Virus record (IMG/VR): IMGVR_UViG_3300002026_001699
Span: 1 to 64,000 of that record
Strand: one strand, 5' to 3'
DNA from: a virus
Taxonomy: Duplodnaviria > Caudoviricetes
DNA: 64,000 bases
Each line of letters starts with the position of its first letter. The first letter of the stretch is position 1. Under the pieces are notes generated by a model. The model made no database searches, had not been told where the DNA came from, and worked only from the letters and a program-made list of their open reading frames with translations. The position numbers and the translations under genes were made by a program. Shown piece after piece: positions 9,238 to 51,946 of this stretch.

Positions 9238-9932
9238 AAATAAATAATGTATTATCTGAAAAAGTTTTATATGATGATAAATTAAAATCTATATTATATT
9301 CTCTAAAAACAAAATTATTAAATGATAATATTTCTGAAAAAATAAAAACTGAAATAAACTTTAATTGGCAAAAAACAAATGAAATAAGATCAATAACACT
9401 TGTAACAATTATTGAAAATGTAATATCAAAATATATTGATAATATTAGCATAACAGTAAATAATCATATTTCTGAATTTGGATATTTTAAAGATCTTGAT
9501 AATAGTTATGAACTAGGTTTAAACATTTTAGCTTTAGCAAAAGAATCAGGAGTATTAAAATCCTTGAAATTAAAAGATAAAATTAGTTATATAGATGATT
9601 TTTTAATACAATGTATTGATGCAGTTTTACACGAAATGGTTCATTATCTTCAATCTAAAACAAGACCTAAATTAGTGAAAGTATATTCTAAAAATGATTA
9701 CTTTAATGATAAAGATGAACTTATGTCTTTTGCCGCAGAGATAACAAGTAATTTAAAAAGTCAAGGTTATACAAAAAAACAAGCCATGGATATAATTCAA
9801 AAAGGTGAAGATGAAGAAGGATTTAAATCAAGTAAGATTTTAAATTTATACAAGAAAATGCCTAAAGTTAAAAATTGGAAAACATTCATGAAATATATTT
9901 ATGGATATTTAGAAAAATGGGATGATTTATGA
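9234..9932 (+). CDS. putative zinc metallopeptidase
   Basis: AVLHEMVHYLQ (HExxH) followed by YFNDKDELMSFA. Confidence 0.65.
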   Translation: MKINNVLSEKVLYDDKLKSILYSLKTKLLNDNISEKIKTEINFNWQKTNEIRSITLVTIIENVISKYIDNISITVNNHISEFGYFKDLDNSYELGLNILALAKESGVLKSLKLKDKISYIDDFLIQCIDAVLHEMVHYLQSKTRPKLVKVYSKNDYFNDKDELMSFAAEITSNLKSQGYTKKQAMDIIQKGEDEEGFKSSKILNLYKKMPKVKNWKTFMKYIYGYLEKWDDL

Positions 9933-10204
9933 GATGGGAAAAAACATTAGCAACAACCGCTACATAGAAACCATATTTAGGAAATAATATTATTAAAATA
10001 AGTTTTAGTAGATCTACAAGACCAAATAGTTCTTGGGTATTAATTGTAAATGCATGGAATATTCCAAGTTATACTTTTAAGATATATGAAAGATTTAATG
10101 AAAAGAAATTTTTAGAAACAGCTGGAAAAATAATAATAACACACAATGCCGCAAAGCATTGTGTGTTTAATAGGATATTTAATACCCCTTCTAGTAATCT
10201 ATAA
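9929..10204 (+). pseudogene. small ORF interrupted by an in-frame TAG (9965-9967)
   Basis: ATGA-coupled start, MRWEKTLATTAT*KPYLGNN...NTPSSNL*; the frame stays open for 78 codons after the TAG. Confidence 0.55.
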
Positions 10205-10208
10205 AATA

Positions 10209-11357
10209 TCAAGCTTCTACTAAAACATTGAAACTTCCTACGAAATTAATAAAGTTTCCATCATTCTCAATTTTACAAGCTACAATTTGGCCCTTCTTTA
10301 ATTCATATCCTTTTGGACTCTTCCAAGGCCATACATAAATAAATGGTTTAGACTTTGTTTCGTCACGCAATGTTATACGAGTATAATCTTTTTGTGTTTT
10401 TGTTCTTTTGTTTTCTATTCCTTCAACTTTTGCTACAATGAAATAACTGCCAGGCTCTTCAATCTCATAAACATAATTAACAGTCTTACCTGTACTTGCA
10501 GATATTTCTTTTCTTATTTCAACAAAAGATTGCATTTCAGTTAAAGACAAGAGACAAAATTCTTCTTCTCTTTCTACAATTAACTTGTATGAATATATAT
10601 CACCTTTATACGACTTATCCTTTCTAAGAGTTGTAAAGATATAAGAGTGAAGGTCAAATCTATCTTGAAAACCTTGTTCAACGAAATCATCAAAAGCACC
10701 TGACCATGTCAAAGCATCAATAGCTCTCTTGTTAAGATTAGCCATTTTCTTTCCATTGTCAGTTACTCTATTGAAAAAGTCATCAATATCTTTAAATGCT
10801 CCATTTTTTCTTTCTGCTACTATTTTAAGAATAGCATTATCAGGGAGAGCTTTAATAAATGACAAACCCCAAGAAATTGTTTTATCATCAATCAATTCAA
10901 AGTTATATCCTGAAGTATTTACATTTGGAGATGTGATATCCATTCCTCTAGCCATAATTTCTGTTGCATAAATAGATATCTTTGTCTCACCCTTCTTTTT
11001 ACTACCCTTATCGGTGTTGTTTAACAAGGCAACATTAAATTCAGGTCTATAATAAGCCTTGAGCCAATATTCTTGGAATGTCAAGAATGTATAAGAGATA
11101 GAGTGACTTTTGTTAAATGCGTAAGTAGAGAAGTTTGACATTAAATCCCACATTTCTTGAGCTTCCATTTTGCCACCAAGTCCATTTTGATCTAATGGTT
11201 TTGAAGCATTCAAGATAAACTTGTCATACAACGGCTTGAGAGATTTAATATAAGTTGGGTTATCTGAACTTAATTTTCCTAACTTTGTAATAAGTCTTCT
11301 TAATTGATTTGTTTCTGCTTTACTAAAAGCGGCAGCAAACTCTGCAATCTGCATCAT
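10209..11357 (-). CDS. dnaE: DNA polymerase III alpha, C-terminal piece (fingers/HhH/OB)
   Basis: MMQIAEF, FSTYAFNKSH, WLKAYYRPEF, PNVNTSGYNF, GLSFIKALP, NKRAIDALTWSGAFDDF and a C-terminal OB fold; ATG at 11357 overlaps the upstream TGA. Confidence 0.9.
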   Translation of the reverse strand: MMQIAEFAAAFSKAETNQLRRLITKLGKLSSDNPTYIKSLKPLYDKFILNASKPLDQNGLGGKMEAQEMWDLMSNFSTYAFNKSHSISYTFLTFQEYWLKAYYRPEFNVALLNNTDKGSKKKGETKISIYATEIMARGMDITSPNVNTSGYNFELIDDKTISWGLSFIKALPDNAILKIVAERKNGAFKDIDDFFNRVTDNGKKMANLNKRAIDALTWSGAFDDFVEQGFQDRFDLHSYIFTTLRKDKSYKGDIYSYKLIVEREEEFCLLSLTEMQSFVEIRKEISASTGKTVNYVYEIEEPGSYFIVAKVEGIENKRTKTQKDYTRITLRDETKSKPFIYVWPWKSPKGYELKKGQIVACKIENDGNFINFVGSFNVLVEA

Positions 11358-11476
11358 TGATAACAATTATGTATTACAATACCATTAGCAATAAAATTAT
11401 GATTATTATTTACTTCAAGATCATAAACATTTTCAGGTGATACTTCCCTTTTACTAACCAATCTAACTGATTGCAT
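11354..11476 (-). CDS. dnaE: split intein C-fragment (IntC3, 37 aa) + extein CYQ; not in ORF track
   Basis: MQSVRLVSKREVSPENVYDLEVNNNHNFIANGIVIHN|CYQ*: block F (VYDL) and block G (HN+Cys). Confidence 0.88.
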   Translation of the reverse strand: MQSVRLVSKREVSPENVYDLEVNNNHNFIANGIVIHNCYQ

Positions 11477-12356
11477 CTTTCAACCTTCCTTTTACATCTT
11501 CGATATTATTTTGAATATCATCTTCCCAAAAACGGATTATATTATATCCATTATTTATTAAATATGCTTCTTTTTCTATTTCTATTTTTTTATATTCTTG
11601 AATATATTGCGACATTTCATTTAATTGATATTTTTTAGGATTAATGTGCCAATAATCCCCATCTACTTCAATAACCAAATTATTTTCTGGAATATAAAAA
11701 TCATAAAAATAAAGTTGGTTTTTATTTTTTAATCTAAACTGTTTTATATAATTAACATTAAATTCTTTTAATATATTTTCAAAATATTTTTCTAAATTAG
11801 ATACATATTTTTGTCTATTGTTTTCTTGAATAAGTCTTCCAATTTTAATTTGTTTATCTTTTATAAAAACGGCATGATCAGAATTATCATGTTTATATAA
11901 AAAATGTGTTTGTAATCCAGCATTATTTTTAAATATTTTATTGCATAAAATGCATTTGAAAATATCATGACATGATGCTTTATGAGCACGTAAAGCAGTA
12001 TTTGTTTCAAATATTTTATTGCAAACTACACATTTAAAATTACCATATTTTATAATATTATCTTTTAATTTACTTTTATTATGATTTTTTTTATGTTCAT
12101 CAGTCCATACTACCCCTGTAATTCTTTTAGAAACTGCAAGAGAATAACATTCTTTTTTACCACAACTTTTTCTATATCCTATAAATGTCCCTTTATTAAA
12201 AACAGAATCTAATTTTTTACCACAAAAACATAAAGGGGCTTGATCTATTATTAATAAAACTTGATTACATTTTTCCTTGTGTTGTTTTAATTTATTAGAT
12301 GAAGATGTTTCAAAACCACATATACATTTATACATTTTTCTCCTATCAAGAACCAA
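11463..12356 (-). mobile_element. free-standing homing endonuclease (Zn fingers + Vsr/DUF559-like nuclease)
   Basis: C2H2-like fingers CVVC..H..C and CILC..H...H; YDFYIPENNLVIEVDGDYWH; lies between IntN3 and IntC3. Confidence 0.8.
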
Positions 12357-12388
12357 TATAGTTATCTTATATGTTCTTGATAAATAAA

Positions 12389-13033
12389 TTAAGCAAACTT
12401 TGAAAAATCTTCATTTATTACTATTTCATCTTCATCATTAAGATTTTGAGCTTCAATCCAACCTCTATTATTGGTATAAATTTGATGATCTGGAGTGCAT
12501 TTTAATATTTGACCACTAGAAAATTCTAATTCAATTAATTTTTTTATTCCATTATCATAGTATTTATTAATATTCTGCCATTCAAAATCTAATGTATTTT
12601 CATTAAGAGTCAATACTTTAACTTCTAATTTATTATTTACAATTTCTTTGATTTCTATTAATCCTTGAGTTGTTAATATTTTAGTATCACCGGTTATACA
12701 CATAAGTCCGAATGTTGGTTTTAGAATATGATGAATAGATGGAGGGATATCTTTTTCTGACCACACAACATTATTTTCATCAGCTCTACCATTTCTATCA
12801 GAATAAATTTCAGGTATTCCCATTGATAATGTTCCAGGGCGGATAAGAGCAGATATATCACAAAGCTCAGAGAAATTATCAGGATCTACTTGCTTACAAA
12901 CTTTGCTGGCTATAGAACTATTATGTACTATTATATCATTTGCTATGAAATTATTATATGGACTTTTCATGGCAATATCATATGTCTCTTCAATATTTAA
13001 TTGAGTAATGTTTTTTATTCTTTGGTATTTCAT
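12389..13033 (-). CDS. dnaE: DNA polymerase III alpha piece 3: IntC2 - extein - IntN3
   Basis: IntC2 (13033-12920) ends IIVHN|S; extein has SALIRPG and LKPTFGLM; IntN3 (12700-12392) starts CITGDT and has CTPDH. Confidence 0.92.
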   Translation of the reverse strand: MKYQRIKNITQLNIEETYDIAMKSPYNNFIANDIIVHNSSIASKVCKQVDPDNFSELCDISALIRPGTLSMGIPEIYSDRNGRADENNVVWSEKDIPPSIHHILKPTFGLMCITGDTKILTTQGLIEIKEIVNNKLEVKVLTLNENTLDFEWQNINKYYDNGIKKLIELEFSSGQILKCTPDHQIYTNNRGWIEAQNLNDEDEIVINEDFSKFA

Positions 13034-13088
13034 TTAACTATTGTACTCTCCATCTATAAGATATATATAACTATGCCAAGGAGTTTAT

Positions 13089-13931
13089 ATGTTATACGAA
13101 TTTTATAGTAAAACACACAATATATGGATAGATATGTCTAAATGTGGATATGCTTTAACCAATCATGTTAGAACAAATCAATATAATAAAAATAAAAAAT
13201 ATTATTTTTATGAAAATGAAGTTATCACAGATAAGACAAAAATAAAATATAAATGTGATAAATGTCAAAATATATTTGAATCAAGTTATGCTTCATATAA
13301 AAACAGAGAACATAAATTATGTTTAAAATGTATACAAAAAATAAAGAGTAATGACCCTATAATTAAAGAAAGAAAAAGACAAGCAGTATTAAAATATGGT
13401 CCTGAAACACACAAAAAAAGATCACAATCATTAAAAAATTTAGATACAAATATTAAACGTATAAAAGCTTTTCAAAAGACAATGAACAATTTATCAAAAG
13501 ACCGAAAAGATGAAATAAAAAATAAAAAACAACAAACCTGGTTTAATAAATCTGAAAATGAAAGGTTGTTAATAATGGAAAAACAAAGAAATTCTGGGAC
13601 ATTATGGACATCAATAAAAACTAAATTTGGTGAAATAAAATGTCAAGGATATGAAGATAGAGCAGTAATTAAACTATTGGAACTTAATGTTGATAAACTG
13701 GAACGTGGTCCATCTGTAAAAATGGATAATGGACATTGGCATTATCCAGATTTATATACAGAAAAAGATGGAAAAAAAATAATAATTGAAGTTAAATCAA
13801 ATTATTTATATAAAAAATATAAAGATGATATTTTATATAAAAAATCACAAGGTATAAAAAATACATCTTGTGATTATTATTTTATTTGGATTTTTGATGA
13901 TAAACAAGAAGTTGATTGTCAATGGTTATAA
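13089..13931 (+). mobile_element. free-standing PD-(D/E)XK-type endonuclease, opposite strand inside the dnaE locus
   Basis: CDKC..CLKC Zn motif, basic helical repeats, YPDLY...IIIEVKS; lies between IntN2 and IntC2. Confidence 0.75.
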
Positions 13932-15077
13932 TGACAATATTTCATCATTATCACTGAGATCTTTTAATTTTTTCCATCCATTTTTTGTTAAAAACTTATG
14001 ATTTTCAGAACATTTAATTTTTTTTCCATCTTCTAACTCTAGTTCAAAAATCATCTTTTTACCAGATTTTTTAATAACCAAACAATCATTTTGAATTAAT
14101 TCTTTTGTTTCTTCATTATACGAAGTTAATTTTTCAGGTAATGAAGAAGTATATAACTCTTTAATTGTTTTATCACCATTAATTATTGTATCTGGATGTA
14201 AGCAATCCATTTGGAATATTCCATAATGATCTCCACCCTTAACAAGATTCTGATAAATTGATTGATCCCCTTGCTGACTATTAATAAAGTCTAATGTTAA
14301 ATCTTTTCCTCTCCTAGTTTTAATTAATTCTAGAGTATCTTGAACTACCTGTAAATTGTTTAATCCAAGAATATCAAACTTGGCGTATCCTATTTCTGAT
14401 AATTCATGTCCTGAGTTTCCTTCCATCCATCCTGTAATTATATTTTTTCTTGATTGGATGATTGCAATATTATCCATCAAGCTATGAGATGAAATAAGAA
14501 CACCTGAAGCATGAGAGCCAGCTTGTCTATGTGCTCCTCGCACACCATTAATAAACCAACGAATAGGCATTTTATCAGTATCATATTTATTGAGAAATGT
14601 TTTTAATGTTGGAACTGCTTCTTCTAATTCTTCTAGAGTTGATGTATCATTAACATCTTGAGGTATTTTTTTTGTTATAGCAAATACATCAGATGATGGG
14701 ATATCACAAACACGAGCAACATCTTGAATGGCTGATTTTATTTTAAGCATACCAAATGTTCCAATGTTAGCAACTCTATCTCTACCATATTTTTCAATAA
14801 TATGTTCAATTACTTTATCTCTTAATCTGGTTTGAAAGTCAGAGTCAATATCAGGATAGTCATATCTTTCCAAGTCTAAGAATCTTTCAAAAAGAAGATC
14901 ATATTTAATTGGATCAACTTCAGTAATATGTAATAGATAATTGATAAGAGAACCAGCTGATGAATTATGAACTGAATAGTCATTTATAGTATAAGTATGA
15001 TCAGTTTCAACTTCTAAATCATATACTTTGCCTTTGTAAAAGTATTCATTAACTGATTTTACTTCAATAAATTCCAT
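13926..15077 (-). CDS. dnaE: DNA polymerase III alpha piece 2 (palm): IntC1 - extein - IntN2
   Basis: IntC1 (15077-14964) ends SVHN|SSAGSL; LLFERFL, catalytic YPDIDSDF, HASGV, KFDILGL, GIFQMD; IntN2 (14204-13929) CLHPDT...CSENH. Confidence 0.95.
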   Translation of the reverse strand: MEFIEVKSVNEYFYKGKVYDLEVETDHTYTINDYSVHNSSAGSLINYLLHITEVDPIKYDLLFERFLDLERYDYPDIDSDFQTRLRDKVIEHIIEKYGRDRVANIGTFGMLKIKSAIQDVARVCDIPSSDVFAITKKIPQDVNDTSTLEELEEAVPTLKTFLNKYDTDKMPIRWFINGVRGAHRQAGSHASGVLISSHSLMDNIAIIQSRKNIITGWMEGNSGHELSEIGYAKFDILGLNNLQVVQDTLELIKTRRGKDLTLDFINSQQGDQSIYQNLVKGGDHYGIFQMDCLHPDTIINGDKTIKELYTSSLPEKLTSYNEETKELIQNDCLVIKKSGKKMIFELELEDGKKIKCSENHKFLTKNGWKKLKDLSDNDEILSL

Positions 15078-16063
15078 GTATTAATAATCTCCTCTGCTTG
15101 AATGTATTTGTCTGTTCTTCTTTTAAACTCTGTAATCTTTCCATGTTGTATCAATATATGCTTATTCATCTCTAATAAATATATAATTTGATTTTTTATA
15201 TCAAATGTGCCAATTTCTGTTAATTCATTTTCTGTTAAGATATTAAAATCATCTAAATTATTTTCTTTAATATATTTTATTGCAGCTTCTTCTTTAACTT
15301 TAATTTCTTTTGTTGCTTGATAATTTTTCATTATCCAATTACTCTTTATTTCTATAATTTTATTATTATAGATAAAATCTGGTCTATATCCTCGTTTTAC
15401 ATTATCTAAAAAATATCTTATTTCGCCTTTAAATCTTTCAAGTTTATTACCTTTTAAATCTTGAATAAAGGCATAATACAATTCATATGTTGATTCAAAT
15501 CTTAAATTACCAGAATATTTAGAATAAAAAACTCCACTTACTCCTTGAAAACCCTTAAATTTATCAAGCATCATTTTTCTATATTCTTTATTTTGCCATA
15601 ATTTTTTAGAAGCTTTACTTATTTTATCACGTTTTTCTTGTGATTTACTGTGTTTAACAATTGAATTTCTCCAATTATCAGCCTTATCAGATTGCCAAGC
15701 TTTTTTTAATGCTTGAGAGTTTATTTCTCTTTGTCCTAATTTATTTTGTGCTATAAACTGTGCCTTAGAGTTTTTATCTCTCCATTCTTTTGAAGAACAT
15801 GTTGATTTCATTATAACAGATGGATGAATAAGTTTATTTTGAAAATATTTTCTATCTATTAAATTAATCAAAATAGTTTCAGTATATAATCTAGATATAT
15901 CACACTCACCAAAAATTATTTTTTTACTTCTTGGCCAATATTCTAAATATTTATAATAAACATCTTTTGGTATTTTTTTAATTTTATCTTTATAATATCT
16001 AATTACTTCATCTGGACAATCATCTCTAAAAAAATATTCTTTATTACTTACTTTTATAATCAT
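15059..16063 (-). mobile_element. free-standing homing endonuclease (NUMOD3-like + PD-(D/E)XK/TnsA-like)
   Basis: HSKSQEKRDKISK, FESTYE, YRPDFIYNNKIIEIKS; lies between IntN1 and IntC1. Confidence 0.78.
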
Positions 16064-16093
16064 AGCGTAATACCTCTTCCTGGTATTATCTTA

Positions 16094-16783
16094 CTAATTT
16101 GATGCAAGTTTTAATGGCTTATTACCAATTATTTCAAATAATTTTTGTAAAAAACTTTTTTTGCTTGGTGTTTTAATTTCTTGTTTTGCATCATCTCCAA
16201 AATTAGTTTGTTGGGTTTTTATAGTAGTCCCTGTATTATTACTAATTACTTGATTTCCATTACCTATTTGATTTCCATTACCAATGATAGCATTACTCAT
16301 AATTATCTCCATATTTGATTCGATAATACCATTCAAAAGTTTTTTACCTGTTGTAGTCAAAGGTTCAATTTTAACTTTTTGATCAGACATAAAGATGCCA
16401 ACATCATCAAACGTTTTGATAGTAAAAGCATTTTTATTTAAATAGCCCCTATCAATAAAATCTTTTACTAAGTGTCCATTAAAATGAACATTACTTATTC
16501 CATTACCAGTTGTATCATTACTTTGATTGTATCGTATTTGAAATAAAAACTTAATATCTTCTTTATATATTAAAAGCTTTTCTCCTTTTTCTGTTAATGG
16601 GTGTTTTTTAATAAGCATCCCTATACTTCCATCTGTAAACCATTGTATTTTAAAACATTCTTCTTTTAAAAATCCTTTAGATATTAAATCTTCAACTATA
16701 GATATATCACTTTCATCTATAAAATTATTCAATTTTATAGCATTAATTTTTTCTAAAAAATTAATTTTTTCTAATCCATTCAT
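16094..16783 (-). CDS. hypothetical passenger protein inside the split-intein gap
   Basis: Internal duplication (LISKGFL...PLTEKGEKLL / FIDRGYL...PLTTTGKKLL) and a GNGNQIGNGNQ low-complexity tail. Confidence 0.7.
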   Translation of the reverse strand: MNGLEKINFLEKINAIKLNNFIDESDISIVEDLISKGFLKEECFKIQWFTDGSIGMLIKKHPLTEKGEKLLIYKEDIKFLFQIRYNQSNDTTGNGISNVHFNGHLVKDFIDRGYLNKNAFTIKTFDDVGIFMSDQKVKIEPLTTTGKKLLNGIIESNMEIIMSNAIIGNGNQIGNGNQVISNNTGTTIKTQQTNFGDDAKQEIKTPSKKSFLQKLFEIIGNKPLKLASN

Positions 16784-16784
16784 A

Positions 16785-19085
16785 TTATACTCCTTTAATT
16801 AAGCAATCCCCAATTTGAAGTTTTGAAGCTTCAATCCAAATTGCATTAATTATATTTTTTTCTCGTCCTTTAGGAATAACTAAAATTTTATGGTCTTTTG
16901 TACACTCTATAGAATCACCATTTTCAAGATTTACTTGAGATATTTTTTCATCAACATCATAAATAAATTTGTTTACTACTTTATGTTTTTTACCATAAGC
17001 AGTTATAACTTCTTGATTAACTTCTATATCTTGAATATTCTTAAATGACCCATCAGAAAGTTTTACTTTTGAATTAGGAATGAAACATCCACGCCCTGCA
17101 CCTACTGATGTTTCACCAAAAGTCTCTTTAGTCCATCCTATAATATCTTCCATGATCAAGAAATAATCAGTATATCCTTTTTTTACAATAACATCTAATT
17201 CAAACTTAACCCTATCAAGATATTCTTTATTGTTTTCTAATCCTCTTTCTTTTAACCCTTTCATAACTTTATCAACAATAACTTTTTTACCATTATCATA
17301 AAGTTTTGGGAGTTTGGCACTTTTATCTAACTCATATTCTTGAACACTATCAACAAGAGAAATTACAGTATGAATACCTTTCCAAAAAACCTCTTCTGTA
17401 AAGACGTCAGACTTATGCCACATTTCCCAAGCATCATGCAATTCTGATACACTTTTGTAATAAAACTCTTTGCCTTTAATAGTCCAAATTTTACCATCTG
17501 TATCTTCTTCAAGTTGTTTAAATGTTTTATCCTGATCAGAAAGCATTTGTAACTCTTGAATGCGTGATTCTGCTTTGGTGAGATAGTGAGCATCATTAGT
17601 AATAACCCATGGAATATTTAATTCCAGAGCAATCTTAATTAACTCTTCATTAATAATTTTTTGTGGTTCCCAATCAATAGCCATTAATTCAATATAATAA
17701 TCTTTTCCAAATACACCATGCCACCACTTGATAACTTCTCTAGCCCTCTTTGGAGCCTCTGCAATTGCCTGTTTATCACTCTCTTCTATAAAATCAGATA
17801 CATATTTGATATAATCTTCTTCTTCAAATTTGTTTTCTTGGTGAGAATAAAAATATTCAAAATCATATTGATCTAGATATTCATTTTCTGCAAGTTTATC
17901 ATCATCCTTTGTTCTAAAAGATGACTTCATTGCCTTTACTTTATTTTCAATGAGGACTTTTTTATCATTAGCTCTTTTATCACTTTCAAGATAAACTCTC
18001 TCCAAGAGAATTCTATTTTGTTCTCCAGTTCCACAACCAGATAAAATAATCAATCCATCACTATGATCTTTTATATATTCAGGATCACAAATTGGATTTT
18101 TGTAAAATCCATTTACCCAAGCATCATTATGAATTTTAACAATATTTTTAAAACCATTTAGATTTTTAGCAAACATTGTTATATGTCTTGTTTCTTTTGA
18201 GGCTATTTTTCTAATGGCTTTATTTTCAGGAGTATCATCTTTAAGAGCGTCTCTTAATTTACCAGCCTGTCTATTTACATAAGCTTCCATTCCAAGAATT
18301 GGCTTTAAGCCATTTTCTTTTGCGCCATTATAAATAGAAATCCAATCACAAATATTTCCATGGTTAGATGTTGCTATTGCAGATTTTTGTTTTTCAACAT
18401 GCCATTTTATTCTTGTATCAGGAGTTCCAATACCATCTTTAAATGAGAGGGTATTATGAACATGAAGATGAACATATTTCCAGTCAATCTTTATTTTTTC
18501 AACTTCTTGTCTTACACTTTCTAGTTCTTGGACATTGTTAAAAGAAAATATCTTTACAGTATATACAAGTTGCTTGGCATTAATTCTCAGAGGAAGATCA
18601 TATGAATTAAGACCTTTAGATATTGCTATTCTAAAAGTTTTTTCAAGGAGAGATTTAGTATAATCACCAAGTGCAAAAATAATTTCTGGTTGAACAACTA
18701 GCAACTCTTTAAAGAGGAATCTTTTTATGTGTAATTTACCATCTTTAAAAAGTGGATCTTCAGTTGATGGATCTTTTGGATATTTTATACCATATGTTAA
18801 ATATAAATCTTTTCTATTAAGATCTAGCGATGTGCAAATTTCTTGGACTGATTTTGATAAATCAGGGTCTGTATAAAATTTGTCAATGTCAAATGGGGAT
18901 GGGTATGGACCTAATATCATAAATGGTGATATTCTACCTTCAGGAAGAGATCTGTTTCCAGGCTGAAGAGCAAACTCACACAACTCAATATCTTTTGCTT
19001 TTTGAATATCATCAAAAATTTTGTCTAGTGTAATATCATTTTTTAATAGATTAGCTGTGATTTGTGATTCTTCATTAAATGGCAT
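16785..19085 (-). CDS. dnaE: DNA polymerase III alpha piece 1: UDG-like domain + PHP domain + IntN1
   Basis: N-terminal UDG family-4-like fold (ILGPYP, ELLVVQPEIIFALG); PHP YVHLHVHNTLSFKDG, SNHGN, ITNDAHY; GYTDYFLI; GAGRG|CFIPNS...CTKDH IntN1 (17087-16788). Confidence 0.93.
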   Translation of the reverse strand: MPFNEESQITANLLKNDITLDKIFDDIQKAKDIELCEFALQPGNRSLPEGRISPFMILGPYPSPFDIDKFYTDPDLSKSVQEICTSLDLNRKDLYLTYGIKYPKDPSTEDPLFKDGKLHIKRFLFKELLVVQPEIIFALGDYTKSLLEKTFRIAISKGLNSYDLPLRINAKQLVYTVKIFSFNNVQELESVRQEVEKIKIDWKYVHLHVHNTLSFKDGIGTPDTRIKWHVEKQKSAIATSNHGNICDWISIYNGAKENGLKPILGMEAYVNRQAGKLRDALKDDTPENKAIRKIASKETRHITMFAKNLNGFKNIVKIHNDAWVNGFYKNPICDPEYIKDHSDGLIILSGCGTGEQNRILLERVYLESDKRANDKKVLIENKVKAMKSSFRTKDDDKLAENEYLDQYDFEYFYSHQENKFEEEDYIKYVSDFIEESDKQAIAEAPKRAREVIKWWHGVFGKDYYIELMAIDWEPQKIINEELIKIALELNIPWVITNDAHYLTKAESRIQELQMLSDQDKTFKQLEEDTDGKIWTIKGKEFYYKSVSELHDAWEMWHKSDVFTEEVFWKGIHTVISLVDSVQEYELDKSAKLPKLYDNGKKVIVDKVMKGLKERGLENNKEYLDRVKFELDVIVKKGYTDYFLIMEDIIGWTKETFGETSVGAGRGCFIPNSKVKLSDGSFKNIQDIEVNQEVITAYGKKHKVVNKFIYDVDEKISQVNLENGDSIECTKDHKILVIPKGREKNIINAIWIEASKLQIGDCLIKGV

Positions 19086-19099
19086 TTATACCTCTTTAT

Positions 19100-19110
19100 T
19101 TAAACTATGC
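19100..19110 (-). promoter_or_regulatory. representative GCATA(T/G)WTA putative phage promoter motif
   Basis: GCATAGTTTAAATA just upstream of the dnaE piece 1 RBS; about 14 intergenic copies in the window (see findings). Confidence 0.5.
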
Positions 19111-19149
19111 ATAACTCGTATAATTATTATATCATATAATGAAGATACT

Positions 19150-19548
19150 CTAAAATGTAATATATATTTTTTTGATTTGACCAAATTTCTTTATTGACAA
19201 ATAACCTATTTTTCCAGTTATCAATAACTTTTCTTGAATTTGAAAAGCCATAGAATCACAGAATGCTAGAAATTGAACTAGCACAATATTTCCTGCAATA
19301 TAAAAATCATCATCATGGAATTCACCAACTTCATGATTATTACTGCTTCTTTTAGATAATTTAATATCATCTAAATTTTTAAAAACTCTATACATAATAG
19401 AGAGTAATAGTTTTATATCTCTAGATTTATTATTTTGAGCAATTTTTTCATATATACTTGCAAATTTAATTTGCTTTGATTTTAAAGGTGGAAGATCTTC
19501 TAACAAGAATTTCCACTTTTCAATTAATTCACTATCTTGTTCTGTCAT
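19150..19548 (-). CDS. hypothetical protein
   Basis: 132-aa ORF coupled to the upstream gene. Confidence 0.6.
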   Translation of the reverse strand: MTEQDSELIEKWKFLLEDLPPLKSKQIKFASIYEKIAQNNKSRDIKLLLSIMYRVFKNLDDIKLSKRSSNNHEVGEFHDDDFYIAGNIVLVQFLAFCDSMAFQIQEKLLITGKIGYLSIKKFGQIKKIYITF

Positions 19549-39481: not shown

Positions 39482-40022
39482 ATTCTCCTTTATATTTGAT
39501 ATAATAATTATCTTTAATATTTATTTTTAATAATTAAGTAGACGTATTACCTTGCAAATTTAACACCAGAATTGGGATCTTTTATCATCTTTGTTAATTT
39601 TTGAATTATATTAAATGGATCAATATTCATAAAATAACCATAATCATAATTATCATACTTTGTTTTTCCATCTAGAGATTTAACAAAACTATCAAACACC
39701 TTAGTAACTTTAGGTGCATTGTCTCCAGTACCCCAGTTAGTGTGAAATACTTTTTGTGGTGAATTATTCACATCATATACAATAAGATCATGATCCCCTC
39801 TATTTAATTTAATCCAACATTTTGCACTAGAATTATTTACATTTTTATTAAAAGCATCATTTTCAGTTTGAGAAATACTTGCTTCGTTTAACTTTTTTAT
39901 AAATTCATTTATTTGCATTATGATTCTCCTTTATATTTGATATAATGATTATCTTTATTATTTATTTTTAATAATGAATGTTTTTAATAATTGTTTTTAA
40001 TAATTAAGTAGACGTATTACCT
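39482..40022. repeat. direct repeats flanking the 39547-39918 gene
   Basis: 39482-39552 is similar to 39923-40022; exact 29-nt tttttaataattaagtagacgtattacct at 39524-39552 and 39994-40022. Confidence 0.9.
39547..39918 (-). CDS. hypothetical protein, probable virion-internal protein
   Basis: MQINEFIKKLNEA leader. Confidence 0.6.
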   Translation of the reverse strand: MQINEFIKKLNEASISQTENDAFNKNVNNSSAKCWIKLNRGDHDLIVYDVNNSPQKVFHTNWGTGDNAPKVTKVFDSFVKSLDGKTKYDNYDYGYFMNIDPFNIIQKLTKMIKDPNSGVKFAR

Positions 40023-41116
40023 AATAAGGCTTCCTTGATTTGCATATTTCCATAATTTATATTAAATTGTGCATAAACATTAGATTCACCATTTCTGTTT
40101 TTTGCAGCATATAAATTAATTTGTCCTGAATCCTTTTCAGATCTTGTTTGAGTAATAGTAAAAAGAGCATCAATGATACGATTCTTTTCCATGGAGTCTG
40201 CTGTATTATTCATACCAATAATTTCTTTAGTGGCTCCATCTGCTCCTAGAGAATCTCTATTAGATTGTGTTGCTGTAATAACAATTACATTTTTCTTTAC
40301 AGCAAGACCTCTTAACTCTCTAAAAATCCATCCTTGCTCTTCATAAAGATTTGCTGATTTATGGGCTGAACGCATAATATCACCATAGTCAATAATAATC
40401 ATATCAGGAATAAAATCCTCATGTAATTTAAGATTCTCTAAATGAGATTCTATATCCATAACACTTGCCATACCAGTTGGAAACTCTTTCATTTTCAATC
40501 TTGTTTTTGTTATTTTCTGAATTGTATCATACTTCTTTTTAATCTCATCAGGGTGCATACTCAACTCTTTCATTATTAACCCCGTTGATATAGCATCATA
40601 ACGCATACCAAGTCTTTCTTCTGACATTTCAAGAGTATAATGAACAACATTCATTCCATTTAACAATGCCTTTATTCCAAAATTTGGAAGGAAGATACTA
40701 TTATGTCCATGAAATTTATCTGCATAATAACTGCTTGTTTCAGCAACTTGAAAATCATACATATATGATTCTTTTCCATTATACTCACAAGTTTTTATTT
40801 TATCCCACCCATTCTCAGTAAAAATAAAATCACTGTTTATTAATTTATCAACAAACTGCCATTTTCTATCTTTATCAAATAATGGTCCTTCTTTTGTTTC
40901 AAATTTGTGTTTATCAGCTACAATAGTTTTTAATCCACTAGTTGTTTCAATTTCCCATTCTGGGTTTAACTGTGTTTTTCTTATGGCTTCAACTTTTTTA
41001 TAGCCTAGTGGAGTATTAACTTTTAATGTCTCTGGTGCTATATTTTCTTGTCCTGGATTATTACACCCCAGTGCCTCTATTAATTCACCAATTTTTACTC
41101 TAGCTTTTATTTTCAA
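40004..41116 (-). CDS. gp41: replicative helicase C-terminal piece with a long split-intein C-fragment (139 aa)
   Basis: IntC (41116-40700) has ADKH block B, MYDFQV and HGHN|S; extein has YTLEMSE, IIIDY, TATQSNR, KNRNG; TTG start with GGGAG RBS. Confidence 0.9.
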   Translation of the reverse strand: MKIKARVKIGELIEALGCNNPGQENIAPETLKVNTPLGYKKVEAIRKTQLNPEWEIETTSGLKTIVADKHKFETKEGPLFDKDRKWQFVDKLINSDFIFTENGWDKIKTCEYNGKESYMYDFQVAETSSYYADKFHGHNSIFLPNFGIKALLNGMNVVHYTLEMSEERLGMRYDAISTGLIMKELSMHPDEIKKKYDTIQKITKTRLKMKEFPTGMASVMDIESHLENLKLHEDFIPDMIIIDYGDIMRSAHKSANLYEEQGWIFRELRGLAVKKNVIVITATQSNRDSLGADGATKEIIGMNNTADSMEKNRIIDALFTITQTRSEKDSGQINLYAAKNRNGESNVYAQFNINYGNMQIKEALLGNTST

Positions 41117-41924
41117 CTGTTCTCTCCCATGGAAAATATGTTATTTTTATCAAATCTTTATATTTTTGTTGTTGTTCTAATATCCAATTTTTTGACATAT
41201 CTGGAATTATAAAGCCTAAATCTTTAATATAATTTTCATCAACTAAAATAAAATCATATTCTAATTCAATAGCTTTTATTTTAAATGAATGTTTACCGTC
41301 TTTATATCCTTTACACTCAATAACAGTCTTATTATTAATAATAAAATCAGGGTAATAATGGTGTTTATTATTCCGATATTCATATTCAATAGGATCTAAA
41401 TCAAATCTTTTTATTGAAATATTATTTTCATAGCAATAAATTAAATATGTGAGTTCATAACTCCCTTGCCATAAAATATTATTAAATAAACCAGAAGGGT
41501 ATATATATCCTTCTTTTTTCCTATTTTTAACTATTTTTTCTTTTGTCTCAATACTATGATGTTTGCCATAAAATGGATTGTTTTCTTTCATTCTTGAAAT
41601 AGAATAGTGTTTTCTCTTTTTGTTTGCCTCTTCATTGCCATAAATTTCTTCAAATGTCTTGCCCTTCATTTTTTTAGATGATGCTGCTTGGCCACCTGTA
41701 ATCCAATTACTTAATTTTTCTTTTGATATCTCTCCACTTTTCCACTTTGTTTTCATTGTTTCAGAAATTTTTTGTTTATTTTTTTCTGAAAGATGTTGAC
41801 CAGTTTTAGATTTATTATTAAAAGCCATTGCACATTTATGACAACAAAATTTCTTGTGAAATCTTACTTCACTTTCAAATTCTTTTTGACAATTCTTACA
41901 AATTAAAATTTCCATTTTTGACAT
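41100..41924 (-). mobile_element. free-standing homing endonuclease (NUMOD3 + PD-(D/E)XK)
   Basis: HLSEKNKQKISE, NPFYGKHHSIETK, QGSYE, YYPDFIINNKTVIECKG; lies between the helicase halves. Confidence 0.82.
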
Positions 41925-41927
41925 CTA

Positions 41928-42632
41928 TTATTCCTTTAGAAACAAATGTTTGATTTTTTCATATTCAGGATCATTATCATCTATTTCTATATCTATATAT
42001 GTATTAAAATGTCCGCATTTGCCAAAACCAGGCGGAGACATTACACAATACAACTCTCGCTTTGCCCATCCACCACCAAGGATTTTATCAATTTGACCAT
42101 AACCAGATGATACTTTATTTTCAATACTTTCTGCAATTTTTAAATAACGTTCATCAACATCATAAAGATCAAAACCAATATTTATATCAAGATTAAAAAT
42201 AAGAGCATCTTTAACAACAGAAATAATAGAATCAAAATCATCTTTTTCAATAAGATTTACAGATTCATTTATTGCTTCAACCATTCTAGCACGTTTTGCA
42301 AACTTTACAACCTCTTCTGTTACATAATCTTTTTCTGCAATATCAATATCTATCTGTTCTTTTGGAATAAAAATCTGATCAAAGAATGGAGCGGTTTTTT
42401 TATTATCTACGCCAACACCACCTAGAATACTTTCTACTACATTTCTATTAGGAAGTTTATTGTGCTTTTTAAAAAATTGTTCATAAATAGTAAATGTTTT
42501 ACCAAGTATTTGTGATTCAAAATAATCTTTTTTAAGATGCTCAATCATCATTACAGCAAATGATCTGTCTAAATGCATCATTTTAAAAATATCTATTTCA
42601 AGATCACCTAGTTCTAGTTTTTCATTATTCAA
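41928..42632 (-). CDS. gp41: replicative helicase N-terminal piece with a short split-intein N-fragment (29 aa)
   Basis: SGYGQIDKILGGG, Walker A SPPGFGK|CGHFNTYIDI... (IntN 42017-41931). Confidence 0.88.
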   Translation of the reverse strand: MNNEKLELGDLEIDIFKMMHLDRSFAVMMIEHLKKDYFESQILGKTFTIYEQFFKKHNKLPNRNVVESILGGVGVDNKKTAPFFDQIFIPKEQIDIDIAEKDYVTEEVVKFAKRARMVEAINESVNLIEKDDFDSIISVVKDALIFNLDINIGFDLYDVDERYLKIAESIENKVSSGYGQIDKILGGGWAKRELYCVMSPPGFGKCGHFNTYIDIEIDDNDPEYEKIKHLFLKE

Positions 42633-48241: not shown

Positions 48242-51200
48242 TTACATACATTTTGAGAAACCACAAGTGCAACTAACACAACCTTCAACATATCTCATTT
48301 CGCCTCCACATTCAGGACAAACATCACCAGTCATTACCCTTTCACCATCTTTTATATATTTCTTGAGAACACGAGAAACAGCTCTTTCAAATCCCATAAA
48401 ATGTTTAGATTTTGACATCTGGTCAACAACAAATTGCAGAGGTGTTCCATGCCTTAATGCCATTGAGGTCATTCTTGCCATAACACCATAAGTTGCATCC
48501 ATTGTTTCAGCCAAGTTATCTTTAACAACTTTTTCAACTCCATTTCTTATAATTAAAGAATATTTTCCTTTACCATTCTTTTTTATAATACCTTCTTTAT
48601 GATTATTTACATCAATCAAACCATCTTTGTTTTCATCAACGAAAATTTCATATAAAGAACCTTGAAGTTTACCAACAAGAACCATCCATTTTTTACTATC
48701 AACAGAAATCTCATGAATATCACATGGAAGTTCATCTGGTCTTTTTGGTGCCATATGTCTTTCTATATATTCTTCTTTTTTTACTTTAGGCTCATTATAT
48801 TCTAATATACCTTTCAAATTTCCAGAAGGATTAAAAGTTGTGAATCCTTTAAGTCCTTTATCATAAGCATACATAAAAAGATCTTGATATTCTTCAAGAG
48901 ATGTTCCTGGAGATAAATTAGCAGTTTTACTAATTGAAGAATCAATATATTTTTGCCATACTGCTTGTATATCAATAGATTTTTTTACATTAATTGTTGT
49001 AGTTGTTATAAAATAATCAGGATGAGCTAAATTTATTTCTTGTTCTGTAAGATTAATATAACTTTTATTATAATGATGTTCAAGATATTTTAACCAAGCA
49101 TTATCATATACAATTTGTTGTTTTGTTTCATCACCAAGTCCTGTTCTATAACTTCTTTTATAAGAAAGAGAAAACATTGGTTCTATTCCAGAACTACAAT
49201 TTTGACCAATACTTAATGAAATAGTTCCAGTTGGAGCACATGTATTTATATTTATATTACGAATACCATTTTCAAGAATTGATTTTTTAATATCATTTGG
49301 TAGTCTCTTGCAAAAACCAGATTCAATAAATTTTTCTCTATTTAAAACAGGAAATTGACCTTTCTCTTTTGCTAATTCTATTGATGCTTTATAAGATTCG
49401 TTTCTTAGAAATTCACCTAATTTATGAGTAAGCTTTAAACTATCTTCTTCACCATAAGTTATTTTCATCATAGCTAACATATCTGCAAATCCAGTAAAAC
49501 CAAGACCTATTCTTCTTTCTCCCATAGACCTATCTTTAATTTTTTCTAATGGATATTCCGTCACAGTAAGAACATTATCAAGAAATCTTACTCCAACTTT
49601 TATAGTTTTAATTAAATTTTCCCAATCAATTTTAGCATCGTCAGTAAAAGGATTTAAAACAAATTTACTAAAGTTTATAGCACCGAGGTCACACACGGCA
49701 TACTCTGGCATCGAGATTTCACCACAATTTAAAGTGTTACAGGATAACAACTTATCTCTACCTGATGCAGTTTTTGTTTGATTAAATATAATATCAAAGT
49801 TATGAACATCGTCTACTGTACCATTATAAACTGTATCAACTCCAATTTTTGTTACTGAAACAATTTTATGATTATAAATCATTCCATTTTCTATTAATTG
49901 TTTAGCTACTGTAGTTTTGCAATTATTTGTGTTTTTATTTATAGATTGAACAGAGATAGGATTTATATTAAAATTGTCAAAAATATTGCTAATAAATGTT
50001 TTATAAGAACCACTTAAGCCAGCAGTTCTAAGATCATTTATTCCATAACTATTTAAGATATAAGAAAATTCTGCCCAAGATGGGATAATATTATTTTCAT
50101 TTACATATTTAGAAAAAAGATTAAAAATCATATCTTGAGATGTTACATGACTTTCATTTGCTTTATCATGTGAAATTTTTGCCATTTTTTTATTATGTTC
50201 AAAAGCTCCACAACTCTGGGAGCAATAGGCTTGTTCTCTTCTGCCAAAACGTACAGAAAATTCATTACCGCAGTGCTCACATGTCTTTTTAACCATAACT
50301 ACATTGTTTTCAACAAAACATTCAAGATCAGTTAATTTTTGACATTCTTTAAAATGTTTATTTGTTCTTTTTTCTATTCCAGTTACAAAAATATCCTTAA
50401 AATTAATCCATGCCTGTTTTGTATTAGATGACGCTTTAACTTTATATTCTAAAGTAGAACACCTTTCTTTTGCTTTTTGACTAATTTTTGATTTTGTTTC
50501 TTGGGATCTTTTTGCGCCAATGTGATATTTTTCTCTCATTTTTTGTTGTGCTTGAGGATCATTCCTCCAGTTTTTTTCTGGGTAACGAATCATTGGATTT
50601 TTATCACCAGAAATATCATGTATGATATCATGTTCTTCTTTTGTCATCATTTGAAGATTATTTACAGAATTATTTGAAGGATTAAAATCTTTATGATGTA
50701 TTATATATCCTTCTGGTATTTTACTCTTAGTAAGTTGTTCATAAACAAATCTATGCTCTCCTATCAGTTTTTTTCCATTAGACATTAACCAATATCCATC
50801 TTTTTCAGAATACTCATCTTCTTTTAATGTATTCCATTTAGAATAAACAGCCAGGCTTTCACCAGACTGAAGATTTATAGCCTCTTTATACATTCCATCT
50901 TTCATTCTAAATTTATGATTTCCTGTACATTTAATTGTTGATCCATCATCTAATAGGACTTGATAAATATCTTGATCATATCCTGTAATTCGTGGGTTGC
51001 GCATTGTTTTTATAATGGGCTCTCCATTATCATCACGTGCATAAACTGGAATATCCTTTCCTTCTTCAGCAAGTTGTTTGATTGGGATAAAATTTCTTCC
51101 ATCAGCAACAGCTACAAGAGTATCACCAGTAAGACATGGATTACATTGCTCAATATTATACATATAATAACCATTGTTTTCTTTATTAACATGGTCAAGA

Positions 51201-51946
51201 TTAAAAATACCTGGCTCATTATTCATGAATGCATTTTTTGTAATCTTATCATATAGGTCTTTAGCTTTAACTGTTTTATAAACTTTATCTTTAAACTTTA
51301 AATCCCAATCACCATCATTTTTTACTTGTTCAATAAAAGCATCAGTAATACCAACTGAGATGTTAAATTGCGTTAGAGCTTTATTTTTATCACCTTGTTT
51401 GATTGTTATGAACTCTTCAATATCAGGGTGGTCAACGTTCATAATTGCAATATGTGCACCTCTTCTCCCTCCACCTGTATGGATTGTTTTAGCAGAGGCA
51501 TCAAATATTTGAGTAAAAGATAGTGGTCCTGATGATTCTCCACCTTTAGAGATTGATGAATTTCTTGGTCTCATGTTAGATATATTAAATCCAACTCCTC
51601 CACCCATTTTACCAATTAGAGCGTCTTCTTTAAGGGCATCATAAATACCTTCCATTGAATCATCTATTTTAATAGTAAAACAATTGTTATAATTCTTCAT
51701 TTTACTGTCTGGTCTTGCATTGGCAAGTATTCTTCCAGCTGGTATAAATTTACCAGAAATAAGTTGATTATAAAACTCATCCTTTACAAGATTGAATTTA
51801 TCATTTGTTTCACATGATGCAATTTCTGTTGATATATCCTCGAATATTTTCTCCACAGATTCTTGATTGTGAATATTATATTTCATTTCAAATATTTCTT
51901 TTGATATTGGTTGTTCCCATTCCCATTTTTTATTATTATCACCCAT
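48242..51946 (-). CDS. nrdJ: class II (B12-dependent) ribonucleotide reductase with intein
   Basis: PAGRIL, NCF, GGGVG, NP|...|CGE active site, RRIGLG, APTGTIS, SSGIEP, SKTAN, KGFTTF, and C-terminal TSCPD + Zn ribbon. Confidence 0.95.
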   Translation of the reverse strand: MGDNNKKWEWEQPISKEIFEMKYNIHNQESVEKIFEDISTEIASCETNDKFNLVKDEFYNQLISGKFIPAGRILANARPDSKMKNYNNCFTIKIDDSMEGIYDALKEDALIGKMGGGVGFNISNMRPRNSSISKGGESSGPLSFTQIFDASAKTIHTGGGRRGAHIAIMNVDHPDIEEFITIKQGDKNKALTQFNISVGITDAFIEQVKNDGDWDLKFKDKVYKTVKAKDLYDKITKNAFMNNEPGIFNLDHVNKENNGYYMYNIEQCNPCLTGDTLVAVADGRNFIPIKQLAEEGKDIPVYARDDNGEPIIKTMRNPRITGYDQDIYQVLLDDGSTIKCTGNHKFRMKDGMYKEAINLQSGESLAVYSKWNTLKEDEYSEKDGYWLMSNGKKLIGEHRFVYEQLTKSKIPEGYIIHHKDFNPSNNSVNNLQMMTKEEHDIIHDISGDKNPMIRYPEKNWRNDPQAQQKMREKYHIGAKRSQETKSKISQKAKERCSTLEYKVKASSNTKQAWINFKDIFVTGIEKRTNKHFKECQKLTDLECFVENNVVMVKKTCEHCGNEFSVRFGRREQAYCSQSCGAFEHNKKMAKISHDKANESHVTSQDMIFNLFSKYVNENNIIPSWAEFSYILNSYGINDLRTAGLSGSYKTFISNIFDNFNINPISVQSINKNTNNCKTTVAKQLIENGMIYNHKIVSVTKIGVDTVYNGTVDDVHNFDIIFNQTKTASGRDKLLSCNTLNCGEISMPEYAVCDLGAINFSKFVLNPFTDDAKIDWENLIKTIKVGVRFLDNVLTVTEYPLEKIKDRSMGERRIGLGFTGFADMLAMMKITYGEEDSLKLTHKLGEFLRNESYKASIELAKEKGQFPVLNREKFIESGFCKRLPNDIKKSILENGIRNININTCAPTGTISLSIGQNCSSGIEPMFSLSYKRSYRTGLGDETKQQIVYDNAWLKYLEHHYNKSYINLTEQEINLAHPDYFITTTTINVKKSIDIQAVWQKYIDSSISKTANLSPGTSLEEYQDLFMYAYDKGLKGFTTFNPSGNLKGILEYNEPKVKKEEYIERHMAPKRPDELPCDIHEISVDSKKWMVLVGKLQGSLYEIFVDENKDGLIDVNNHKEGIIKKNGKGKYSLIIRNGVEKVVKDNLAETMDATYGVMARMTSMALRHGTPLQFVVDQMSKSKHFMGFERAVSRVLKKYIKDGERVMTGDVCPECGGEMRYVEGCVSCTCGFSKCM
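49727..51136 (-). mobile_element. contiguous intein (470 aa) with HNH endonuclease
   Basis: CLTGDT block A, CTGNH block B, HNH EHR...HHKDFNPSNN...EH, NUMOD3-like KRSQETKSKIS, VYNGTV block F; ends TLN|C. Confidence 0.92.

Follow-up and report, generated by a model that had tools for sequence, protein, structure and literature searches.

Introduction

How could a complete replicative polymerase arise from a gene that is broken into four pieces with other genes lying between them? This question is raised by a dnaE locus within the first 64 kb of the 72-kb IMG/VR viral contig IMGVR_UViG_3300002026_001699, which comes from an uncultured phage of a microbial mat. This stretch of 64,000 nucleotides (nt) is called the window in the following. 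The contig is ~48% complete according to CheckV and has a GC content of ~27%. The list of open reading frames (ORFs) shows DnaE as four co-oriented pieces on the minus strand within 8.9 kb (10209-19085), with six intein halves at the extein boundaries: three N-terminal halves (IntN1 to IntN3) and three C-terminal halves (IntC1 to IntC3). We consider it probable that this is a multiply fractured phage dnaE gene carrying three split inteins and their nuclease genes, and that its four pieces are joined by three trans-splicing reactions.

Fractured genes in environmental phage-like DNA have been described by Dassa et al. 2009 (Dassa, London, Stoddard, Schueler-Furman and Pietrokovski), including the GOS loci DnaE-1 to DnaE-3 (PMC2677866). 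The fractured dnaE genes of that study have three integration points, none of which is the cyanobacterial one. Vsr-like nucleases were linked to the fractured genes, the DnaE-1 locus had an additional in-frame IntC, and a control by hairpins and late promoters was described (PMC2677866).

Results

Anatomy of the dnaE locus

A first inspection of the letters and the ORF list alone (the sequence-only reading) had found DnaE motifs in the correct order over separate ORFs, and the ORF list together with Pfam bears this out. PHP, DNA_pol3_alpha, DNA_pol3_finger and HHH_6 follow one another correctly along the four pieces (P1 to P4), and Hint/Intein_splicing matches are present at every junction with E values from 1e-7 to 1e-15. 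The layout is therefore not due to chance. Scores of the HINT/intein profiles (PF14890, PF01079) amounted to 47.4 bits for P2 and 58.3 bits for P3 with a cut-off of 35.8, and the Hint score of P1 was 32.1 against 29.7; IntC3 alone reached 35.2 bits, slightly below the cut-off of 35.8. All six intein halves are thus located where the sequence-only reading had placed them. Of the three breaks that it described, the third is out of frame in the window and whole only in other contigs from the same samples (see below). The anatomy of the ORFs likewise agrees with the IntC-extein-IntN architecture that it had proposed for P2 and P3.

In P1 an extension of 200 residues precedes the PHP domain, after which the Pol III alpha domain begins. 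Extein 2 holds the catalytic motifs PDIDSDF and DILG (FDILG), extein 3 is a portion of the finger domain, and extein 4 contains the remaining finger domain, HHH_6 and the C-terminal domain. After trimming of the intein halves at their motifs, the exteins were joined and aligned with three references, namely DnaE of E. coli, the undivided DnaE of Streptomyces phage LilMartin and the likewise joined DnaE of L003, a relative described below. The joined exteins are colinear end to end with all three, and their motifs PDIDSDF and FDILG match the E. coli catalytic Asp motifs (PDxDxDF, FDxLG). The junctions GRG↓S, FQMD↓S and GLM↓C (arrows mark the junctions) are located in conserved motifs: site 1 within GPGRG↓SGAGS, site 2 within FQxE↓S, and site 3 one residue ahead of YQEQ. 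The predicted length of the spliced DnaE is ~1380 amino acids (aa), with a mass of ~159 kDa.

The N-terminal extension (residues 1-200 of P1; 18486-19085, minus strand) shows weak matches to family-4 uracil-DNA glycosylases (UDG; Pfam UDG, E 0.004; PDB 1ui0, E 0.05) and is missing from L003. It may represent a UDG-like domain fused to the polymerase. The positions of all parts of the locus are listed in Table 1.

Table 1. Parts of the fractured dnaE locus, with positions in the window.
Feature	Position	Strand	Description
DnaE piece 1 (P1)	16785-19085	-	766 aa: 666-aa extein ending GRG, then the 100-aa IntN1
IntN1	16788-17087	-	100 aa; Cys1; block B TKDH
Gap-1 ORF	16094-16783	-	229 aa; own Shine-Dalgarno motif; begins 1 nt past the P1 stop
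Gap-1 nuclease	15059-16063	-	334 aa; predicted TnsA-like PD-(D/E)XK; final 19 nt overlap the IntC1 start
DnaE piece 2 (P2)	13926-15077	-	383 aa: IntC1, 253-aa extein SSAGS...FQMD, IntN2
IntC1	14964-15077	-	38 aa; C-terminal VHN
IntN2	13929-14204	-	92 aa from Cys; block B SENH
Gap-2 nuclease	13089-13931	+	280 aa; predicted PD-(D/E)XK with DUF7487/TnsA-like relatives
DnaE piece 3 (P3)	12389-13033	-	214 aa: IntC2, 73-aa extein SSIAS...GLM, IntN3
IntC2	12920-13033	-	38 aa; C-terminal VHN
IntN3	12392-12700	-	103 aa from Cys; block B TPDH
Polymorphic cassette	11358-12700	-	IntN3, nuclease gene and IntC3
Gap-3 nuclease	11463-12356	-	C2H2 zinc fingers and predicted Vsr-like/DUF559 domain; final 14 nt overlap the IntC3 start
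IntC3 ORF	11354-11476	-	40 aa: IntC3 of 37 aa with C-terminal IHN, plus CYQ; TGA stop
DnaE piece 4 (P4)	10209-11366	-	385 aa, TTG start; extein 4 proper from MMQIAEF (10209-11357)

Residues and relationships of the split inteins

All three intein pairs retain the residues of canonical splicing, namely Cys1, the block B motif T/SxxH (TKDH, SENH and TPDH), the terminal HN and a Ser, Ser or Cys at position +1. The C-terminal junctions read VHN↓S in pairs 1 and 2 and IHN↓C in pair 3. This bears on the possibility that the pieces assemble without splicing, the intein halves acting as docking domains of a four-chain polymerase complex. Non-covalent assembly has been documented for a phage ribonucleotide reductase fragmented by a nuclease gene (PMC3045599). 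For the present locus we nevertheless regard such an assembly as improbable, since dead relics normally lose exactly those residues that the three pairs keep, and since the splicing residues are conserved in relatives at 49-79% identity.

Pairwise identity among the three inteins is 24-35%, and their nearest solved relatives differ. For IntN3 this is NrdJ-1 (E 2.9e-14), for IntN2 the DnaB inteins (E 1.6e-8) followed by gp41-1 (E 3e-5), and for IntN1 no solved relative was found by sequence at E <= 0.01. The divergence therefore fits an acquisition of the inteins in three separate invasions and makes a mutual orthogonality of the three pairs plausible.

The sequence-only reading had called IntC1 acidic and the N-termini of IntC2 and IntC3 basic, which is roughly right: the net charges of IntC1, IntC2 and IntC3 are -5, 0 and -1, and by manual count both IntC2 and IntC3 begin with a basic tip. 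The tails of IntN1, IntN2 and IntN3 carry +2, -1 and -5, so that pair 1, with an acidic IntC1 and a basic IntN1 tail, has the opposite polarity to pairs 2 and 3. The suggestion that charge determines specificity is thus tenable for pair 1, which is set apart in this way, but not for pairs 2 and 3, which share their polarity.

Nuclease genes in the gaps

Each gap contains a predicted nuclease gene, and three different kinds are present at this locus. The endonuclease genes claimed by the sequence-only reading could be recognized by DUF559, a TnsA-like fold and PD-(D/E)XK motifs; beyond that description, gap 1 has a further ORF and the gene in gap 2 lies on the plus strand.

The gap-1 nuclease has three relatives only among 5.8 billion proteins, with E194, P228-D229 and E238-x-K240 as invariant residues. 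TnsA is the top structural match of its AlphaFold model (predicted local distance difference test, pLDDT, 72) with a Foldseek probability of 1.0 and E 0.014, and comparison by VIA gave Z 7.8 and a root mean square deviation of 4.0 over 140 aligned residues. The gap-2 nuclease starts with an N-terminal Cys-rich zinc ribbon and has the conserved residues E189, P220-D221 and E234-V-K236. Its relatives match DUF7487 over the cut-off, with remoter and weak matches to TnsA-like and Phage_endo_I profiles, and its model (pLDDT 84) gave weak matches exclusively to restriction-endonuclease-like folds. In the gap-3 nuclease, which probably starts at the ATG at 12335 rather than at the TTG at 12356, DUF559 is matched with 34.9 bits (cut-off 20.6) and Vsr weakly with 26 bits; a VDGDYWH-type motif is located downstream of the DNA-binding zinc fingers.

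For the 229-aa ORF in gap 1 we found nothing in Pfam or NCBIfam and Atlas scores of at most 0.84; a single weak PHROGs match (E 0.0048) leads to an uncharacterized family. It contains an Asn/Gly-rich repeat with GNGNQ occurring twice. The ORF at the same place in L003 shows no homology to it, and because of this unrelated ORF the gap-1 slot seems to accumulate hitch-hiking genes.

Junction 3 and alleles in the mat population

The IntC3 ORF of the window ends in HN-CYQ-stop; extein 4 is read in a different frame and lacks the EQ of YQEQ. We compared the region with Logan contigs of four microbial-mat metagenome runs from one study (X1-X4). All mat contigs spanning the extein 4/IntC3 boundary carry 7 extra bases after 11356, which on the minus strand read GAACAAA in X1 and GAGGAGA in X4 and restore an in-frame CYQEQ-MM or CYQEE-MM; in the X4 contig the insertion is flanked by 124 nt on the extein-4 side and by 34 nt on the other. 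The window form is supported by no contig of the four runs. In addition, IntC3 is fused in frame via CYQEQMM in the homologue P0123 (67% identical), which lies on contig L008 from another sample. For these reasons the frameshift is most likely a 7-nt loss at a bubble of the assembly graph. Two further explanations of the frame were rejected: with TGA recoded as sense a TAA is reached within ~20 codons, and no slippery heptamer for programmed frameshifting is present, so that the 7-nt loss was preferred.

The same observations can be set against the view that the gene is decaying, i.e. that invasion by nucleases and inteins together with the frameshift at junction 3 has inactivated dnaE and that the phage replicates with a polymerase encoded outside the contig. 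The stop after CYQ and the change of frame would fit such a decay, as would a contig representing only about half a genome. Yet no contig of the four runs matches the window junction and those crossing it are in frame, the commoner allele is uninterrupted at site 3, the other pieces are all open with intact catalytic motifs, and the layout is retained in diverged relatives. A decaying gene therefore appears very unlikely to us.

The commoner allele was found in a 647-nt X3 contig and an X1 unitig, both of which connect 11357 to 12701 through 15 nt encoding VYQEE. The left end of the joint coincides exactly with the Met codon preceding Cys1 of IntN3. The joint represents an allele that lacks exactly intein 3 and its nuclease gene. 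The k-mer depths in X1 are 19 for the intein-less allele, 5-8 for the cassette contigs and ~17 for the flanks; allele frequencies are inferred from these contig depths, which are rough. Sites 1 and 2 are spanned by one 15-kb contig at full depth with no alternative joint. Because of this unbroken contig and the intein-less allele at site 3, the mat population appears fixed for inteins 1 and 2 and is polymorphic for intein 3, and many genomes there would accordingly have a DnaE in three pieces. The four-piece polymerase of the sequence-only reading thus holds for the window but not for that part of the population from which the intein-3 cassette is missing. A polymorphism of this kind is the expected pattern for a homing element that is spreading or disappearing.

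The low depth of the cassette could also mean that the layout with three inteins is an assembly chimera of two strains, with just inteins 1 and 2 in the real genomes and a third cassette that comes from a different phage. The unsupported window junction at 11356/11357 and the breaking of contigs at both cassette ends point in the same direction. On the other hand, cassette contigs overlap both flanks with zero mismatches (X1 records 2 and 5; X4 record 24, whose overlap on the side of extein 4 is 124 nt), L008 carries sites 2 and 3 on a single contig, and an independent case of three split inteins within a single dnaE is found in another relative (L005). We give little credence to a chimera for these reasons.

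Contigs of three runs have 3 extra bases (AAC, plus strand) after 12791 at full depth, resulting in KF in extein 3 where the window has N, and KF is likewise found at the matching position of L008. This represents a second small deletion in the IMG/VR contig. Furthermore, we noticed a joint of 15066 to 18421 in X3 and X4 with just 21 letters on one side, which probably derives from another organism. Mat contigs diverge into unrelated sequence at 13193-13265, 13845, 15045, 16742 and 18441; these may represent paralogous nuclease genes or other fractured loci of related phages.

Relatives with a split dnaE

No match was obtained when the region was compared by megablast with 50,697 phage records, tblastn retrieved distant intact DnaE only, and a scan of viral contigs with piece 2 did not reveal a relative. 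The intact and differently split alleles that the sequence-only reading had called for were found in other contigs. In L003, which is represented by contigs of up to 274 kb and has exteins of 49% identity, dnaE is split at site 1, with a 334-aa nuclease of 63% identity and the same 19-nt overlap; its sites 2 and 3 are uninterrupted and an additional split is located at FNK↓SHS. L005 carries split inteins at three places, namely site 1, ILGL↓C and FNK↓, and its gaps contain different nuclease genes. In L008 the splits are those of sites 2 and 3, exactly as in the window and with the same nuclease genes, and in the more distant L009 and L010 an IntC-extein-IntN middle piece is flanked by DnaE pieces.

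When 127 database proteins were mapped on the joined DnaE, split-intein ends were found at at least 7 positions, and by our own count thirteen clusters among these proteins represent IntC-extein-IntN middle pieces. The intein halves are conserved at least as well as the exteins (79% for IntC1 and 63% for IntN1 compared to 49% for the exteins). As judged from these predicted pieces, dnaE of related phages contains two or three split inteins, and the multiply split gene is recurrent and widespread in uncultured large phages.

Among the related DnaE pieces, P0004, P0005, P0007, P0009 and P0013-P0015 have a very short start ending in CSHN just before the TDF of PDxDTDF. These may result from an active-site split intein with an unusually short IntC or from truncated gene calls.

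Signals for translation and transcription

Shine-Dalgarno-like motifs precede all pieces and nuclease genes except extein 4, for which no ribosome-binding motif was found upstream of the TTG or the ATG. The start codons of IntC1 and IntC3 are located within the last 19 and 14 nt, respectively, of the upstream nuclease genes. Downstream of extein 4 a terminator-like hairpin is present (10138-10167). Promoter-like sites are no more frequent in the region than in shuffled sequences. The motif TATAAATA was found 31 times with 23.6 expected, which is no enrichment, and it is not positioned ahead of the nuclease genes. Removal of the gaps as introns at the RNA level was rejected because an Rfam search of 9900-19400 at E <= 0.1 matched no family and hence no group I or group II intron.

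Other inteins on the contig

A DnaB/gp41-like helicase gene (40004-42632, minus strand) also appears fractured. Here a NUMOD3/endonuclease-I-like gene (41100-41924) precedes an ORF with most of an intein and DnaB_C, which suggests that the helicase intein is atypically split with a very short IntN. The large subunit of ribonucleotide reductase (48242-51946, minus strand) contains a contiguous intein with an HNH endonuclease domain (residues ~281-717). Past the window two weak Intein_splicing matches occur: an IntC-like start of a 650-aa frame at 64085-64198 and a mini-intein-like stretch in a 485-aa frame at 71361-71726. The contig is unusually rich in inteins.

Discussion

We propose that each DnaE piece is translated separately from its own Shine-Dalgarno motif and ATG and that the cognate IntN and IntC halves associate. 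Three trans-splicing reactions at GRG↓S, FQMD↓S and GLM↓C would then yield one DnaE with a UDG-like N-terminal domain. The nuclease genes would be the mobile part and would cut intein-less alleles in co-infecting relatives, thereby spreading or maintaining the cassettes, the third of which would still be polymorphic in the source population. A further-reaching reading could equally well prove right or wrong: that the three pairs form a naturally selected set of orthogonal canonical split inteins working side by side on one protein in one cell, with the reversed polarity of pair 1 contributing to specificity, that site 3 has been caught in the course of homing or loss, its donor and recipient alleles coexisting in a single mat population, and that phage dnaE genes, with the at least 7 split sites of the relatives, constitute a natural library of split inteins functioning together.

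Several points weigh against these proposals. Splicing, the absence of cross-reaction between the pairs and homing by the nucleases are what we infer from sequence. Pairs 2 and 3 have a similar C-terminal motif and the same charge polarity, and a cross-reaction between them might circularise piece 3 or leave out extein 3. IntN3 with IntC2 is therefore a risky combination, since it would cyclise the 73-aa extein, and so is IntN2 with IntC3, by which the same extein would be skipped. The repair of the reading frame at junction 3 is based on short contigs of the same study and one homologue. For the nucleases of gaps 1 and 2 the structural matches are weak, with Foldseek E values of 0.002-0.014 and VIA Z < 8. 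Finally, with about half of the genome on the contig a second polymerase could be encoded elsewhere.

The locus shares with those of Dassa et al. a split intein that cuts the host gene, a free-standing endonuclease gene between IntN and IntC, and an overlap of the 3' end of the endonuclease gene with the IntC start. The Dassa loci are short, separate and have one split intein each, whereas a single complete gene, located on one contig, here contains three complete split inteins and three nuclease genes. A PD-(D/E)XK/TnsA-like type is predicted for two of these nucleases, in contrast to the Vsr-like or GIY-YIG nucleases of the Dassa loci, and unlike there an intein-less allele is also present in the population. 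The predicted gap-3 nuclease shares DUF559 with the I-Bth0305I family of Vsr-like/DUF559 homing endonucleases (PMC3239194), while the gap-1 and gap-2 nucleases fall outside this family into other PD-(D/E)XK groups (TnsA-like, DUF7487). A candidate target of the gap-3 nuclease would be the junction of the intein-less allele at site 3.

The cyanobacterial Ssp/Npu DnaE intein (cited in PMC2677866) likewise rejoins two DnaE halves by trans-splicing. It differs by a single split at another site (ahead of FNKSH), by halves encoded in distant loci and by the absence of a nuclease gene between them. Its sequence matches IntN3 weakly (E ~1e-5) and IntN2 more weakly still (E 0.006-0.01), and IntN1 gave no sequence match to it. 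NrdJ-1 (PDB 8ubs) and gp41-1 (PDB 6qaz) are alike in the sizes of their halves (~90-105 aa and ~37 aa) but belong to other host genes and sites and have low identity to the inteins in the window.

The IntC-extein-IntN order of P2 and P3 is the layout that is used for protein cyclisation in the SICLOPPS method. Joining of three or more segments by several split inteins side by side has been engineered as tandem trans-splicing by Pinto et al. 2020 (PMC7090010). Both are laboratory constructs, whereas the layout in the window is natural, and selection must therefore have avoided cyclisation and exon skipping if the pieces splice. In the literature searched, we found no complete natural gene with several or three split inteins. 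Since multiply split dnaE genes are common in uncultured large phages, the locus extends the known kind of fractured gene and is not a new principle. What is specific to it is that all parts lie in cis on 8.9 kb, that the nucleases are of three types, and that one population contains both the donor and the empty allele of site 3.

If the pieces do splice, an essential replication enzyme of this phage would be built from four polypeptides through three simultaneous protein ligations. As the layout of P2 and P3 leads to cyclisation in the laboratory, the pairs must in that case have been selected against cross-reaction. The locus would then be a natural counterpart to engineered tandem trans-splicing, and its intein pairs would be candidates for use in the ligation of multiple fragments. 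At site 3, the coexistence of alleles with and without the intein provides a defined pair of donor and recipient for tests of nuclease-driven homing of a split intein.

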